Source: Bryobacterales bacterium (GTDB lineage: Bacteria > Acidobacteriota > Terriglobia > Bryobacterales > Bryobacteraceae). Taken from it: a stretch of DNA of 64,000 nucleotides. Positions 5,636-53,419 of this stretch are shown in pieces. Under the pieces are notes generated by a model, which had not been told where the DNA came from, did no database searches, and saw nothing but the letters and a program-made list of their open reading frames with translations. The position numbers and the translations under genes were made by a program. Every line of letters starts with the position of its first letter. Positions within the stretch are counted from its first letter, which is position 1. Where the stretch lies: the NCBI GenBank assembly GCA_963846175.1, contig CAWJUX010000002.1, positions 20 through 64,019 on the forward strand. Direction: 5' to 3'.

Positions 5636-6001
5636 GTGTCAAAGCAGGCAGGTCGGCGGTGGAGCAAGTACAGTCCGGAGTTCAAGCGGACAGCAGTGGA
5701 CCGGATCGTAGCGGGCGAGAGTCCGACTGCGGTAGCGCGAGAGTTGGGCATTCGATGTAAGTTTCTGTATGCCTGGAAAGCCGCTGGAAAAGGAAGTCAG
5801 GGCGCGCCCACGGTTTCAAAGAAAGTAGATGGCGACCCGCAGGAGCAAGAGGTGGCGCGGCTGCAAAGGCGGATTGCGGAGTTAGAACGGCTCACAGGAA
5901 AGCAGACGGCGGAACTGGATTTTTTCGCCGCAGCCTTGCGCAGCGTCAAGGAGACACGCCGGAAGAGCGGCGCGCCTTCCGACGAGGAATCTACCAAGTG
6001 A
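5636..6001 (+). CDS. IS3-family transposase OrfA (HTH)
   Basis: RRWSKYSPEFKRTAVDRIVAGESPTAVARELGIRCKFLYAWK followed by a leucine-zipper-like region. GTG start after GAGAGGAGAAGG. Confidence 0.85.
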   Translation: MSKQAGRRWSKYSPEFKRTAVDRIVAGESPTAVARELGIRCKFLYAWKAAGKGSQGAPTVSKKVDGDPQEQEVARLQRRIAELERLTGKQTAELDFFAAALRSVKETRRKSGAPSDEESTK

Positions 6002-6897
6002 TTCAAGATCAGGTAGCTGCCCAAGGCCAGGCCAGTATCGAAAGAATGTGTGAACTGGGCAAGGTGAGCCGTGCGGGCTTTTATCGAGATTGGCAAGAAC
6101 GCCAGCCGCAGGAAGCAGAAGTCGCTCTTCGAGAGGTGATTCAAAAAGCCGCGCTCGCGCGGCGGACTTATGGCTATCGCCGCATCACAGCGTTTGTGCA
6201 ACGCGCCGGCATTGCTGTGGGCGAGGGCGTTGTGAGGCGTATCTTACGCAGCGATAATCTCCTGTCAGTTCGAAAGCGCAAGTTCAAGCTCACCACCCAC
6301 TCCGAGCATGGCTTCACCGTTTACCCGAATCTGGCACAGTATGTGCAGATCACAGCAGTCAACCAACTCTGGGTAGCCGACATCACCTATCTGCGTTTGG
6401 GACGTGAGTTTGTCTATCTAGCGGTGGTGCTGGATGTCTTCTCCCGACGCGTAGTAGGTTGGTCACTGGGTCGCAGTTTGCAGACGACGCTGCCGCTGTC
6501 TGCATTGAATCAAGCCATCCAAGATCGTCAGCCGGGCGCTGGCCTGGTGCATCATTCCGACCGCGGGAGCCAGTATGCCAGCAACGACTATGTGAAACGA
6601 CTGGAGGAGGTCCGCATGGTGATCAGTATGAGTCGCCCCGCCAGACCGTGGGAAAACGCGTATTGCGAGAGTTTCATGAGCACTCTCAAACGAGAACAAA
6701 TCAGTTGTCCAGGTTACGCGGCGATGGAGGATTTGCAGAACCGCATGGCCGAGTTCATCGACCAGTTCTATAACGTTCAACGATTGCATTCTGCGCTCGC
6801 TTATTGCTCCCCAGTGGAGTTTGAAACTCAGCAGGGCGCAGTTCCGCCAGCCGGCTTGAGTTTTCCCAGGCATGAGGAAATCTATCCTGATGCTTAA
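5998..6897 (+). CDS. IS3-family transposase OrfB (integrase core, DDE)
   Basis: WVADITYL...HHSDRGSQYAS...WENAYCESFMSTLKRE is typical of the rve domain. The frame is -1 relative to orfA and is open from at least 5860. Confidence 0.9.
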   Translation: MIQDQVAAQGQASIERMCELGKVSRAGFYRDWQERQPQEAEVALREVIQKAALARRTYGYRRITAFVQRAGIAVGEGVVRRILRSDNLLSVRKRKFKLTTHSEHGFTVYPNLAQYVQITAVNQLWVADITYLRLGREFVYLAVVLDVFSRRVVGWSLGRSLQTTLPLSALNQAIQDRQPGAGLVHHSDRGSQYASNDYVKRLEEVRMVISMSRPARPWENAYCESFMSTLKREQISCPGYAAMEDLQNRMAEFIDQFYNVQRLHSALAYCSPVEFETQQGAVPPAGLSFPRHEEIYPDA

Positions 6898-7076
6898 CCT
6901 AACACCCAATCAGCGAAGAGCGGAATCCCGCCCTCCGCTGTCTCATCAGGATGAGTTTCCAGCAGAATATTCCTTAGCCGGTTGCTCTCCAGCAGGGCCG
7001 GCCTCCGCTTCTTCTGCTACGCTCATCCTCAACCCGAAACTTACTATTGGCTACTGTTTTTCAGCCAATGGCAACC

Positions 7077-7098
7077 GTCCCCGAATTCGACTGTCTCA
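7077..7098. repeat. IS3 right terminal inverted repeat
   Basis: GTCCCCGAATTCGACTGTCTCA, ends with CA; partner of 5591..5612. Confidence 0.8.
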
Positions 7099-7336
7099 AC
7101 TCGTAACGCAAGCCAATCTCCTACCCCCTGGGACACCCGCCTGCCAACCTGAAACTTAACGAAATTGTTTTCAGATCAACGCCGACTGGACGCGGATCAT
7201 GGTTCGACAACTTCGTGAACGATGCTCCGAGCTATTTTCGAAGTGTCCAATACCTTCGGCCGGGATGCAGTTATTTTCCCGACACTGCATCAGTAACTTT
7301 CGCGCTCGTTAAATCGAAGCTACAGTTAATAAGGCA

Positions 7337-23597: not shown

Positions 23598-24053
23598 ATG
23601 AAAAGAGCCCGGATTGCTGCCGAGTCGCGGTCCTACCTGGATGAACGCTTCAGGAGGCTGGGACCTGTTGCGCTCTACAATGCGCCGGTTCGAGGTTGGA
23701 TCAAGGCCGTCCGCGAGGCGCTCGGCATGACCACCCAGCAGCTGTCAGTGCGGCTCGGCGTCAGGCAACCGTCCGTGGTGGATATGGAGCAATCCGAAGC
23801 GAAGGGAGCCATCTCTCTCGCCACCTTGCGGCGCGCTGCGGAAGCACTCGACTGCACGCTCGTTTATGCGCTGGTGCCGAACCAGCTGCTGGAGACCACC
23901 GTTCGGGATCGCGCGCGTTTCTTTGCCCGGCGTCGTCGTGAGCCCATCGAACACTCGATGCTGCTGGAGGATCAGAAGGTGAAAGAAGAGTACAGCGAAG
24001 CAAGGATCGACGAGATTTTGCGCGACACGAACCCACGTCAGTTTTGGGACTAG
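23598..24053 (+). CDS. XRE-type HTH protein of the 'mobile mystery protein A' type (antitoxin-like partner of the Fic protein)
   Basis: RGWIKAVREALGMTTQQLSVRLGVRQPSVVDMEQSEAKGAISLATLRRAAEALDCTLVYALVP matches my memory of that TIGRFAMs family. It overlaps the next gene by 10 nt. Confidence 0.75.
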   Translation: MKRARIAAESRSYLDERFRRLGPVALYNAPVRGWIKAVREALGMTTQQLSVRLGVRQPSVVDMEQSEAKGAISLATLRRAAEALDCTLVYALVPNQLLETTVRDRARFFARRRREPIEHSMLLEDQKVKEEYSEARIDEILRDTNPRQFWD

Positions 24054-24637
24054 TGAACGATCTCTTCGAGCAGCCGGACCATGCCACGCCGTTGACGCCG
24101 GAGGAAATGCGCGAGTTGATCCCCTCGTACGTCGCGTATCGCCGCGAGCTGAATGAGGTTGAACAGGAAAACATTGCGCGCGGACAGGACTGGGCACTTG
24201 GACGCAAGCGAGACCTGCTCACCGAAAAATTCGTCATGGATCTGCACCGCCGGATGCTAGGCGACGTATGGCGTTGGGCAGGAAAATTCAGGAAGAGCGA
24301 GCGGAATATCGGAATTGTCTTTTACGAGATTCCGCTCGCCCTGCGACTTCTGCTCGACGATGCGAAAACCTGGATTGCCTGCAACACTTATCCGCCCGAT
24401 GAAATCGCCGTTCGCTTTCATCACCGGCTCGTGCAAATCCATTCGTTCCCGAACGGCAACGGCCGCCACTCCCGTCTGATGGCGGATCTTTTGGTTATGA
24501 GGCTGGGCCGTGAGCGGTTCTCCTGGGGGAGCATCGGTCTGCGGGAGCCGGGCGAACTGCGTCAGCGATACATTACAGCCCTGCGGGCGGCTGACAACCT
24601 CGACGTCGGCCCGCTGGTGGCGTTCGCTCGTTCTTAG
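24044..24637 (+). CDS. Fic/DOC-family protein of the 'mobile mystery protein B' type
   Basis: Fic core motif HSFPNGNGRHSR (HxFx[D/E/N]GNGRxxR). N-terminal ATPLTPEEMRELIPSYV...ELNEVEQENI is typical of this subfamily. Confidence 0.85.
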   Translation: MGLVNDLFEQPDHATPLTPEEMRELIPSYVAYRRELNEVEQENIARGQDWALGRKRDLLTEKFVMDLHRRMLGDVWRWAGKFRKSERNIGIVFYEIPLALRLLLDDAKTWIACNTYPPDEIAVRFHHRLVQIHSFPNGNGRHSRLMADLLVMRLGRERFSWGSIGLREPGELRQRYITALRAADNLDVGPLVAFARS

Positions 24638-40877: not shown

Positions 40878-42447
40878 ATGGGCGTAATCACACAGACGGT
40901 TTCAGAACTGGGGTCGCTTGAAAGCAACCCGCTCCAGGACCCCTTAAGATTCGCTCGGCAAATACCGCCTTGCGCAATTGTAATCTTCGGCGCAAGCGGC
41001 GATCTGTCGAAACGAAAACTTCTTCCCTCGCTCTACCGGCTTTTTTACGAGCGCCGCATTTCCCAAAATTTTGCCGTTATCGGCAGTTCGCGTACTCCCA
41101 TGTCGGACGCGCAGTTTCGCGATCGCATGAAGGAATCGGTCTCCAAGTTTCTGGAAGACGCGCCGTTCGATGAGGATGTTTGGAAGTCGTTCGAACAGTC
41201 CTTGTTCTACGTGCCCGGCGATCTCACCAATCCCCCTTCCTACGATGACCTCGGGAAGAAACTGGATGAGGTTGAGAAATCACACCAGACCGGCGGCAAC
41301 GTTCTGTTCTATTTGTCCACGCAGCCTAGCCATTATGCCGACGCCATCAAAGAACTGGGCGCGCATAATCTGGCCAAAGGCAATGGCTGGCGTCGAGTCA
41401 TTATCGAGAAACCCTTCGGCCATGATCTGCAGAGCGCGCTCAAACTCAACGAAGAGATTCACACCGTCTTCGATGAATCGGACATTTACCGGATCGATCA
41501 TTATCTTGGCAAAGAAACCGTCCAGAACATCCTGGCTTTCCGTTTCGGCAATGGCATCTTTGAGCCGCTGTGGAATCGCCGCTATGTCAGACCACGTGCA
41601 GATTACGGCGGCTGAAAGTATTGGCGTAGAAGGGCGCGGCGGCTACTATCAGGAAGCCGGCGCTTTGCGCGACATGATTCAGAACCACTTGAGCCAGGTG
41701 ATGGCGACCGTGGCCATGGAACCTCCTACGGTTTTCGATGCGGAAAACGTGCGTGACGAACGTGCCAAGTTGCTGCGGGCCGTGCGCGTCATGAAGCCCG
41801 AAGATGTTCCGACATATGCGGTAGCGGGTCAGTACGGGCCCGCGAAGGTGGGCGGTCAGGATCTGCCGGGCTTTCGGGAGGAGCCGAGCGTCGATCCCGA
41901 TGCGCAAACCGATACCTATGCAGCGGTCACATTTTTCATCGACAATTGGCGCTGGGCCGGCGTTCCGTTCTACATCCGCACCGGCAAGCGCATGCCGAAG
42001 CGCGTTACTGACATTGCAATTCAATTTCATGCGCCGCCCTTAGGTTTATTCACGCAGGAAACCAAAGGCGGCTTGCGCGAGGCGCGGCCGAACTTGCTGG
42101 TGTTGAGAATTCAGCCGGAAGAGGGCATATCCTTGCGCTTCGTATCGAAGAGCCCGGGTAGCGGCATGCGCGTGCGCCCGGTTTCCATGGACTTCAATTA
42201 CGGTTCCAGCTTCGGCGAACGAACTCCCACCGCCTACGAAACTCTGCTGGTGGACGCGATGGCCGGCGATCCCACACTCTACACTCGCCAGGACATGGTG
42301 GAAGCGAGCTGGCGAATTGTTCAGCCGGTGCTTGAAGTCTGGGCCAAAACGAAATTTGATTTTCCGAATTATCCATCTGGCAGTTGGGGTCCGAAAGAAT
42401 CGGACGAGATGCTGGCGCGCCAGGGCCATGTTTGGAGGGTGCCATGA
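40878..42447 (+). pseudogene. zwf: glucose-6-phosphate dehydrogenase, reading frame broken once (+1) near 41589
   Basis: The N-part (frame 0) carries IFGASGDLSKRKL, RIDHYLGKE and FEPLWNRRYV. The continuation DHVQITAAESIGVEGRGGYY...RDMIQNHL lies in frame +1. Frame 0 stops at 41613..41615. Confidence 0.85.
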
Positions 42448-48584: not shown

Positions 48585-49868
48585 TTACATGAACCTGCCG
48601 TCGGCAGAGATACGCTCGGCGCCCATATAGGGTTGGAGGGCGGCGGGAACAACAACGCTGCCATCCGGCTGTTGATAGTTCTCGACCACGGCGACCCAAG
48701 TGCGCCCAATGGCAAGACCGCTGCCGTTCAGAGTGTGAACGAAATCGGCCTTGGCCTTGCCGCTCTTATAGCGGATTTGGGCGCGGCGAGCTTGGAACGC
48801 TTCGAAATTGGAGCAGGAAGAGATTTCCTTGTAAGCGCTCTGGCCGGGCAGCCAGACTTCAATGTCGTAGGTCTTGGCGGAACTGAAGCCCATGTCACCG
48901 GTACACAACAGCATTGTCCGGTATGGCAGACCCAGTTTCTCCAGGACGGTTTCAGCGTGATGAGTCAGCTTCAGGTGCTCTGCATTGCTTTGTTCGGGCA
49001 GCGTGAACTTGACTAATTCCACCTTCTGAAATTGATGCTGGCGAATGATGCCGCGAACGTCACGACCATAGGAGCCGGCTTCACTGCGAAAGCAAGGAGT
49101 GTAGGCGCAAAGCGAGATGGGGAGTTCGTCAGCGCTCAGTGTTTCTTTGCGGAATAGATTGGTGACGGGTACTTCGGCCGTGGGGGCCAGCCACAGATCG
49201 TGCTTTTCACATTTAAAAAGATCTTCTTCAAATTTCGGCAACTGGCCGGTTCCGTACAGGCTTTCGGAATTAATGAGAAAGGGCGGCAGTACTTCGTAAT
49301 AGCCATGCTCTTTGGTATGGAGATCGAGCATGAAGTTGATGAGTGCGCGTTCCAGGCGCGCACCGAGGCCCCAGTAAACTGCAAAGCGTGCGCCGGTCAC
49401 TTTGGCAGCGCGTTCCAGATCTAAAATTCCGAGGTCAGCGCCCAAATCCCAGTGCGGTTTGGGCGTGAATGAAAACTCGTTCGGCGTGCCCCAACGGCGA
49501 ACCTCGACGTTATCGTGTTCGCTTTTTCCGGCAGGGACATCCGCCTGCGGCAGGTTAGGGATGCGGGCGAGCACGTCACGAAATTCGGCATCGAGTTTGT
49601 CAACCTCTGCGTCGAGCTGTGAGCTGCGATCAGCCATGGCACGGACTTCTTGTTGGCGTTCGGTGGTGTCGACGCCCTCCCTGCGCATTTTGCCGATTTC
49701 GACGGTGGCTTGATTGCGCTCGGCTTTGAGCGTTTCGTTTTCGGTGACGAACTGGCGGCGGCGGCGATCCAGTTCGCTAAAGGCTTCCATATCGAGGCTG
49801 AAGCCACGGTCGGCGAGGCGATTGCGAATGAGATCGAGATTATTGCGGAAGAAGTTGAGATCGTACAT
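48585..49868 (-). CDS. serS: seryl-tRNA synthetase
   Basis: N-terminal coiled coil [18 protein letters not shown] and class II motifs ([30 protein letters not shown]). Confidence 0.95.
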
Positions 49869-49970
49869 GAGGAAGAGTTCAGACCCGACGAGGGGTGTTT
49901 GTCCAGTTTAGCTTTTGAGAAGCGCTGGAATGCTGGAAAATGCTACAGTCAAGGCTTCGGAGAACAATTG

Positions 49971-50522
49971 ATGCGAATCACCAGACGAGTTGCAGTCGGC
50001 GGCGGGATCAGCGTTCTATTGGCCGCCCAACAAAACGGACCCGTGTCCTCCTCACTGAAAGTGGGCGATACGGCTCCTGACTTTACATTGCCTTCCACCG
50101 AGGGCGGCAATGTCCACATGGCTGACTTTTTTGGCAAGAGCACGGTTGTTCTGGCCTTTTTCCCGGCAGCCTTCACCGGTGGTTGAACGGCCGAAATGAA
50201 AGCGTACCAGGCTGGTATGCAACATTTTCAGGAGACCGGAGCGAAGGTGTTCGGCATTAGCACGGACAACACTCCTTCGCAGAAGGCCTTTGCGGCTCAG
50301 TTGGGTTTAACGTTTCCGCTGCTGAGCGATTTCCTTGACCGCAAGGTTTCTCAGCAGTACGGTATCTTCATTCCGAAATATGCCATTGCGAACCGGGTAA
50401 CGTTTGTCATTGACAGCCAAGGCAAGATCGACACGATTGAATCCGGTGGCGATGCTATCAAGATGCTGCAGACGCCGGATGCGTGCAGCCGATTGGCGCA
50501 CAAGAAGGCGCAGGGCTCTTAG
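49971..50522 (+). CDS. AhpC/TSA (BCP-like) peroxiredoxin with an in-frame TGA at the peroxidatic-Cys position (candidate selenocysteine; otherwise a nonsense pseudogene)
   Basis: ORFs 49650..50186 and 50196..50522 are in the same frame. Read through, the sequence is [12 protein letters not shown]...[24 protein letters not shown]...VFGISTD..., the Prx active-site context FxPxxFTxxC(T/S). Confidence 0.65.
50193..50228 (+). promoter_or_regulatory. SECIS-like stem-loop starting 6 nt after the in-frame TGA
   Basis: Lower stem GAAAUG/CAUUUU (50193..50198 with 50223..50228). Upper stem GCGUACC/GGUAUGC (50202..50208 with 50214..50220, one G:U). Apical loop AGGCU, whose G residues lie 24-25 nt from the UGA. 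Confidence 0.45.
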
Positions 50523-52860: not shown

Positions 52861-53116
52861 TGTCCCGTCCGGCGATGTCCATTCGTCCAAGGCGCGGTAT
52901 TCGGAATCCGTTCCTCATGACTGATGATGTACAAACCAACAGCCACAACATATCAAAGAGCTCTCTTCTGTAGGATGACTGACTCAAAGGATGAGGGAAG
53001 CACGTGCTTTGCTAATAACGGCTGAGGGATTCTTCTTGAAATGTACGCACGATTGGCGTACACTACGGTGTTGGGAGCTTTGCTCGCCGTCAATTATTAG
53101 GCGGGAGGGGCATGCG

Positions 53117-53419
53117 ATGCGAGTGATAGAACGCAGCACGCGAACAACCGGAAATGAGCGCTTTGCGGCACGGGTAAGTCCCGAGAAGAAGTCGTTGTTG
53201 AAGCGAGCCGCAAAGCTTCGCGGTAGCTCCCTCACAGAATTCGTGATCAATAGCGCCATGGAAGCGGCGGAGCGCACCATAAAAGAAGCGGAGTTTATGG
53301 AACTCACGCAACGCGACAGGGCAGCGTTTGTACAAGCCCTGCTGAATGCTCCGGCGCCGCCCAATGCAAAACTGCGTAAAGCCGCTTTACGGCATGCGCA
53401 GATGTTTCCTGCGAGTTAA
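53117..53419 (+). CDS. DUF1778 (TacA-like) type II antitoxin
   Basis: RFAARVSPEKKSLLKRAAKLRGSSLTEFVINSAMEAAERTI... is a typical RHH DUF1778 sequence. GGAGGGG precedes the ATG. Confidence 0.8.
   Translation: MRVIERSTRTTGNERFAARVSPEKKSLLKRAAKLRGSSLTEFVINSAMEAAERTIKEAEFMELTQRDRAAFVQALLNAPAPPNAKLRKAALRHAQMFPAS

Follow-up and report, generated by a model that had tools for sequence, protein, structure and literature searches.

A conserved in-frame TGA at the peroxidatic position of a Bryobacterales peroxiredoxin gene is probably a selenocysteine codon with its own bacterial SECIS element

In the 64-kb stretch of Bryobacterales DNA analysed here (hereafter the window), an in-frame TGA at 50184-50186 splits an open reading frame of 71 aa (49971..50186) from one of 108 aa that starts at ATG 50196 and runs in the same frame to 50522. 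Does this TGA end a protein, disrupt a gene or encode an amino acid? When the TGA was read through, a single product of 183 aa (49971-50522) was obtained, in which the residues TAEMKAYQ follow the TGA, and the Pfam family AhpC-TSA (PF00578) matched across it (profile positions 1-122 of 124, E 2.7e-37, 127.9 bits against a cutoff of 26). The first-pass annotation, made from the letters of the DNA, had described two same-frame ORFs parted only by a TGA, a complete AhpC/TSA protein of about 183 aa on read-through and a stop placed exactly on the catalytic Cys of peroxiredoxins (Prx). Coordinates and frame were verified, the Pfam match runs through the stop, and the PxxxTxxC column is occupied by Cys in homologues. 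The elements of the reading frame, all on the forward strand, are as follows.

49959..49963, + strand: Shine-Dalgarno-like GGAGA, 7 nt 5' of ATG 49971, found by sequence inspection and presumed to serve in initiation

49971..50522, + strand: complete CDS of the predicted selenoprotein, 183 aa including Sec72, with the stop TAG at 50520-50522, delimited by the AhpC/TSA match and by orthologues

50184..50186, + strand: putative Sec-UGA codon (Sec72) at the peroxidatic Cys position, assigned from TGA and TGC counts across orthologous loci

GGAG-like motifs were also present 5' of the orthologous start codons.

Orthologues were found in 85 loci besides the window. A scan of one genome per species gave 80 loci for codon counts, nearly all from Bryobacterales, Bryobacteraceae or Terriglobia MAGs. 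At the catalytic column 76 of these 80 carried TGA and four carried TGC (L059, L067, L077 and L064, the last from the cultured strain F-183); five metagenome contigs added further TGA loci, giving 81 in total. Within the TGA forms protein identity drops to about 55%. The protein sequence is conserved before as well as after the TGA, synonymous sites are saturated outside the hairpin region described below, and in the orthologue alignment the 111 codons 3' of the TGA are under strong purifying selection and contain neither stops nor frameshifts.

These data bear directly on the explanation that the first-pass annotation had kept as its alternative, namely that a TGC or TGT codon was turned into TGA by a simple nonsense mutation, or by an assembly error, so that the gene would be a pseudogene. 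Elsewhere in the window zwf is indeed disrupted by a 1-nt frameshift near 41590, so either the assembly or the genome is not flawless. An accident of this kind would nevertheless have to recur at the same column in the 76 independent species-level genomes and the five metagenome contigs, in front of codons that remain under selection and together with a hairpin that accompanies the TGA. We reject the alternative and leave it next to no probability.

When 5.8 billion proteins were searched, the closest relatives (86-93% identity) were almost all 108-aa fragments starting at the Met after the TGA, and the full-length relatives (55-83% identity) had Cys at the aligned column. This column is invariant Cys in the alignment of Cys homologues (A3). 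In a neighbour-joining tree, calculated without support values, Sec and Cys forms were interleaved, which fits the repeated exchange of Sec and Cys described for Prx.

The region immediately 3' of the TGA folds into a hairpin, for which two extents have to be distinguished.

50202..50220, + strand: conserved core of the putative bacterial SECIS (bSECIS), stem GCGUACC/GGUAUGC with loop AGGCU, -9.2 kcal/mol when folded alone

50193..50228, + strand: extended hairpin, whose lower stem of 6 bp pairs 50193-50198 with 50223-50228, not family-wide

In the 36-nt extended hairpin the lower stem has 6 bp and the upper stem 7 bp, or 8 if an A-U pair closes it; together with the loop AGGCU it has a folding energy of -12.4 kcal/mol, and its loop G residues lie 24-25 nt past the A of the UGA. 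As a single-sequence fold this is modest (z = -2.03; 6 of 200 shuffled sequences folded equally well), and since the one sequence folds only modestly better than expected by chance, the decisive evidence for a SECIS is comparative.

Pairing was scored for 79 TGA loci aligned without gaps. In the upper stem it reached 95.7%, against 23-43% in slid registers, and pairs of this stem were exchanged in a compensatory manner: an A-U pair became U-A in 12 sequences, where a Tyr codon TAC changed to Phe TTC together with a change of Gly GGT to GGA, and a C-G pair became G-C in two. The core consensus, GCRUACC-AGKCU-GGUAUGC, begins 18 nt past the U of the UGA; 53 loci have AGGCU as the apical loop and 19 have AGUCU. 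Synonymous codon entropy falls to near zero at alignment codons K49-Q56, where Tyr is TAC in 67/67, Gln CAG in 77/77, Ala GCT in 56/56, Lys AAA in 61/62 and Gln CAA in 60/64 cases, in a gene that is otherwise saturated. This collapse indicates that selection acts here on the RNA and not on the protein. The lower stem behaved differently. It forms in the window sequence and its near relatives, but across orthologues its pairing came to only 74.6%, two of its pairs were open in most sequences and compensatory exchanges were absent; it was therefore ruled out as a conserved feature. The hairpin originally described from the window sequence thus folds as proposed and its upper stem-loop is conserved; its lower stem is not.

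According to published criteria a bSECIS pairs 4-16 bp in its upper stem, leaves 3-9 nt in the apical loop and reaches an MFE of -7.5 kcal/mol or lower, with a G in the first two loop positions (N1-G-[G|U]-N-N2) and a UGA-loop distance of 16-37 nt (PMC13188914). The window has a stem of 7-8 bp, the loop AGGCU, a spacing of 22-23 nt and an MFE of -14.2 kcal/mol by this measure, which bears out the earlier remark that the spacing of the loop G residues suits a bacterial SECIS. On all four points 78 of the 81 TGA loci agreed with this model, as did none of the four TGC loci, from which the hairpin is missing altogether. A covariance model, one of the checks named in the first-pass annotation, was built from the alignment; it gave 79 bits for the window, 46-50 bits for two held-out TGA loci (L074 and L068) and 17-28 bits for the TGC loci. 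The comparison of orthologues proposed at the same time gave a consistent picture, the TGA loci carrying the hairpin and all four TGC loci lacking it. The model found no second copy of the hairpin in the 64-kb window, and no Rfam family matched it at the gathering threshold or at E values up to 10.

In a distant subclade (L063, L065, L072, L073, L075, L083 and others) a stem in a shifted register was observed about 18-40 nt past the TGA. It contains a bulged U, GGCGUACC...GGUA-U-CGCC, and suggests that the SECIS stem is kept there by a different architecture. The two Gly codons just 5' of the UGA (50178-50183) are GGT in 61/79 and 68/79 orthologues, unlike elsewhere in the Prx gene, where GGC is the preferred Gly codon. 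An RNA structure enclosing the UGA was considered as the cause of this bias, and no conserved pairing of that kind was seen in the orthologues; the GGT-GGT preference may reflect an influence of codon context on the decoding of Sec.

The same alignment allowed us to weigh a split gene, in which translation would stop at the TGA and restart at ATG 50196, giving polypeptides of 71 and 108 aa that perhaps assemble. Of 78 distinct sequences, 72 do have an ATG 9 nt past the TGA, the GGTGGT upstream of it is weakly Shine-Dalgarno-like, and gene callers predict exactly these two ORFs. The three codons between TGA and ATG (ACN; GCN or AAG; GAR), however, vary at position 3 only, as translated codons would, and five of the 78 distinct orthologues have no start codon at this place (Ile, Val (GTC) or Phe instead). 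Moreover, the two products would miss the catalytic residue that is present in every contiguous homologue, and the hairpin would be left unexplained. We consider a split gene extremely unlikely.

Taken together, we read the TGA as a genuine selenocysteine codon served by a bacterial SECIS, within a presumably exported AhpE/BCP-like peroxiredoxin, and place the probability of this reading at about 92%. The proposal of a Sec-peroxiredoxin with a SECIS-like hairpin, which had been made from the window sequence, is strengthened by the restriction of the hairpin to TGA loci, its covariation, the synonymous constraint and its agreement with the bSECIS criteria.

The remaining question is whether the codon is read as something other than Sec, either through a genetic code with TGA as Trp or Gly, or through a suppressor or near-cognate tRNA inserting Trp or Cys, with the hairpin acting as a stimulator of read-through. 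Some public gene calls do show W at this column. Full-length JGI calls with Trp at the catalytic column are P0001, P0073, P0101, P0107, P0111 and P0120, and the contigs of P0001 carry TGA at the column (L084 480-482, L085 970-972), from which table 11 does not yield the protein; P0001 was therefore called with a table in which TGA means Trp. On short metagenome contigs the assignment of the genetic code can thus be misled by a conserved Sec codon. In the window, TGA terminates 12 of the 40 long ORFs, and is therefore an ordinary stop in this DNA, which excludes a reassigned code. Trp or Gly at the peroxidatic site would in addition abolish Prx chemistry, homologues have Cys there, and the hairpin fits the bSECIS loop pattern and spacing exactly. 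Other in-frame TGAs of the window with long open frames on either side were inspected and dismissed as shadow-frame noise, not selenoprotein genes.

A non-Sec decoding also draws on the search for Sec machinery in the one 64-kb contig of this genome: neither selA, selB, selD nor a tRNA-Sec was present in the window, and the fetched flanks had none of them either. No match was obtained by tblastn with SelA and SelB queries against the window and all loci, the window, 60 Prx loci and four SelA loci all gave no tRNA-Sec with ARAGORN, and Pfam annotation of the 40 long ORFs of the window revealed no selenium-related gene. At the level of the lineage the evidence points the other way. For Solibacter usitatus, a member of the Bryobacterales, SelA, SelB and two Sec-containing FdhA proteins are listed in the supplement of Zhang et al. 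2006 (PMC1794560), so the lineage possesses the machinery and uses Sec in FdhA. Homologues of the S. usitatus SelA were abundant at 72-90% identity, some of them in MAGs labelled Bryobacteraceae at NCBI. Three SelA matches were traced to their assemblies, none of which was among those in which a Prx locus had been found. The Sec-decoding trait is supported at lineage level, through SelA and SelB in relatives, and a non-Sec decoding of the TGA appears to us very unlikely.

Regarding the surroundings of these genes, three Bryobacterales-type contigs, L086, L088 and L089 (~5864-7335), share the conserved order tRNA-Pro(CGG), selA, efp, and neither selB nor a tRNA-Sec is adjacent to selA in them. 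In the window, serS (48585-49868, - strand) lies next to the selenoprotein gene on its upstream side and is divergent from it; its product, seryl-tRNA synthetase, loads serine onto tRNA-Sec. This adjacency is absent from the 85 other loci and, being confined to the window, is probably coincidental. None of the window's neighbours recurs in the orthologous loci, either as a conserved neighbour or as a gene for a reductant partner.

We next consider what kind of protein the uninterrupted frame would encode. Three features mark the catalytic centre and the C-terminus.

50163..50186, + strand: active-site motif P65-A-A-F-T69-G-G-U72 (PxxxTxxU), aligned with FFPLAFTGIC of AhpE

50394..50396, + strand: codon of the catalytic Arg142 (ANRVTFVID), aligned with IANRGTFVVD of AhpE

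50484..50486, + strand: codon of Cys172 (DACSRLAH), the only Cys of the protein, in a family-specific C-terminal helix

Pro65, Thr69 and Arg142 are invariant in homologues, Arg142 in both alignments A1 and A3. The best sequence match in the PDB was AhpE of M. tuberculosis (E 6e-25, 44% identity), and Sulfolobus BCPs scored similarly. The closest Cys homologue was modelled with AlphaFold2 (pLDDT 80.9); the model, which has a C-terminal helix at 165-181, superposed on Sulfolobus Bcp1 and Bcp4 and on AhpE with target-normalised TM scores of 0.85-0.90. A Prx-fold model that matches these structures identifies the protein as AhpE/BCP-like. For the AhpE subfamily proper we applied the criteria of closest similarity to AhpE, a 1-Cys mechanism without resolving Cys, and dependence on mycoredoxin or mycothiol; compared with this subfamily the window protein has an extra conserved residue, Cys172, on its C-terminal helix. 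The C-terminal Cys is present in 99% of the Sec forms and invariant in the Cys forms. We propose it as a candidate resolving residue that would convert the selenenic acid into a Se-S bond.

The N-terminus had been noted from the beginning as signal-like, and this feature is kept in the family.

49971..50033, + strand: predicted export signal of 21 residues, with a basic n-region containing TRRVAV, a hydrophobic core and an A-Q-Q c-region

The n/h/c architecture of a signal is conserved in orthologues, with RR in 33 of 84, and the model residues equivalent to 1-22 are disordered (pLDDT below 50). From these sequence features the product is predicted to be exported from the cytoplasm. The type of signal switches within this one orthologous family: in the subclade of the window it is twin-arginine-like, (S/T)RRxAIG with a Gly-rich core, and more distant members have a classical Sec-type signal (MRLLKFALL...AQA). 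As criterion for the Tat pathway we used recognition of an (S/T)RRxFLK-type motif by a Tat signal model; in an NCBIfam scan of five N-termini no Tat-signal model matched.

From these elements the following course can be envisaged. The stem-loop at 50202-50220 would act as a bacterial SECIS and recruit SelB-GTP together with Sec-tRNA(Sec) to the UGA at 50184-50186, where Sec72 would be inserted in place of chain termination. Decoding would accordingly be expected to depend on SelB and to incorporate selenium at the UGA. The N-terminal signal would send the 183-aa product out of the cytoplasm, and there Sec72, activated by Thr69 and Arg142, would reduce peroxides and become a selenenic acid. Cys172 would probably resolve this intermediate as a selenenylsulfide, which a thiol reductant could then recycle.

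Among bacterial selenoproteins, peroxiredoxins with a TxxU motif form an established family, for which there is experimental proof from Eubacterium acidaminophilum (PMC13188914). The first-pass annotation had rightly stated that Sec-containing Prx are not new, and the nearest catalogued examples are entries 2 and 3 for Anaeromyxobacter dehalogenans among the Sec-Prx of Zhang et al. 2006 (PMC1794560), which are TxxU proteins of AhpE/BCP-like type as in the window. Entry 2 shows 40% identity over the whole mature protein and has an aligned C-terminal Cys (SCPLHK, against ACSRLAHK in the window); entry 3 shows 42% identity and contains VVLAFYPAAFTPVUT. Anaeromyxobacter, however, belongs to a different phylum, its motif is AFTPGU or AFTPVU compared with AAFTGGU in the window, and the supplement entries are given without N-termini. 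S. usitatus is not among the Prx entries of the 2006 supplement and the string FTGGU is absent from it (PMC1794560).

PrxU of E. acidaminophilum (NF040737; Sohling et al. 2001, cited in PMC13188914) likewise has Sec in a PxxxTxxU motif, encoded by an in-frame UGA. It represents a different Prx subfamily, since the window protein reached only 63 bits against a cutoff of 270 with the PrxU profile of 233 positions. PrxU is a cytoplasmic enzyme of a strict anaerobe. Two further families were excluded. With the Prx-SUH model (NF045827, CxxU) the window protein, whose motif is TGGU, scored 31.4 bits against a cutoff of 298. The Prx-like UxxC/UxxU oxidoreductases and cd02970 (UxxS), motifs taken from PMC13188914, do not agree with the sequence U-T-A-E that is read in the window.

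AhpE (Rv2238c; PDB 1xvw and 1xxu) and Sulfolobus Bcp1/Bcp4 share with the window protein the FFPxAFTGxC loop and the arginine in IANRxTFV, but use Cys instead of Sec. AhpE, a 1-Cys Prx according to its PDB entry, starts at the catalytic domain without a signal-like N-terminus in the alignments, and both sequence and fold matches to AhpE and the Bcp proteins stop short of the Cys-bearing C-terminal helix of the window protein. On the RNA side, the fdhF/fdnG-type SECIS of E. coli and the bSECISearch model also have a stem-loop right after the UGA within the coding region. The small loop whose second nucleotide is G and whose third is G or U is common to this model and to the window, where the spacing is 22-23 nt, whereas the sequence of the fdhF/fdnG-type SECIS is unrelated to that of the window hairpin.

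The literature held nothing specific on a Sec-Prx in Bryobacterales or Solibacter, and recent reviews and database papers do not mention such a clade in their main text. The finding is a lineage-wide new example of an already known kind of selenoprotein, and leaves the known mechanism of Sec decoding unchanged. A wider reading would be that an uncatalogued clade of exported, periplasmic AhpE/BCP-type Sec72/Cys172 selenoperoxiredoxins, possibly Tat-routed in the window's subclade, is the default form across the Bryobacterales; we regard the chances of this as evenly balanced. If it holds, Sec decoding would be near-universal in the order, most public genomes and metagenomes of Bryobacterales would mis-annotate the gene, and a TGA=Trp code would sometimes be given wrongly to whole short contigs. 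The Bryobacterales are an abundant soil and peat group of the Acidobacteriota. The conserved Sec codon itself marks them as probable habitual selenocysteine users with a predicted extracytoplasmic selenoenzyme, which bears on soil selenium ecology and on oxidative stress.

The consequences for annotation follow a regular pattern. On independent contigs the neighbouring gene calls show the same split into 71 and 108 aa, and the expectation that the gene would be mis-annotated as two fragments is borne out by public calls that are either these fragments or full-length proteins containing W. The error is systematic: fragments or a Trp-containing protein are called in no fewer than 76 species-level genomes, and likewise in many metagenome clusters. 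Neither of the Prx fragments with the boundaries of the window is a called protein in a collection of 15 billion proteins, and none of the NCBIfam selenoprotein models covers the window protein. The more than 80 orthologous UGA-plus-hairpin elements, together with natural Cys revertants without hairpin, offer a clean comparative set for bSECIS models.

Several minor observations were made elsewhere in the window. The zwf gene (40878-42447), encoding glucose-6-phosphate dehydrogenase, lies in two frames owing to a single extra base, with the junction at about 41588-41592. The extra base (tat gtc A gac cac gtg) is outside a homopolymer; the N-terminal part ends with LWNRRYV and the C-terminal part resumes with DHVQITAAE, so that zwf is either a pseudogene or carries an assembly indel. 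An ORF at about 23942-24634 (+ strand) contains the Fic-type motif HSFPNGNGRHSR, and the segment upstream of its TGA looks non-coding. An IS-type integrase with an rve domain was located at 5998-6897, and a gene for a TacA-like antitoxin at 52991-53419, 2.5 kb downstream of the Prx gene.
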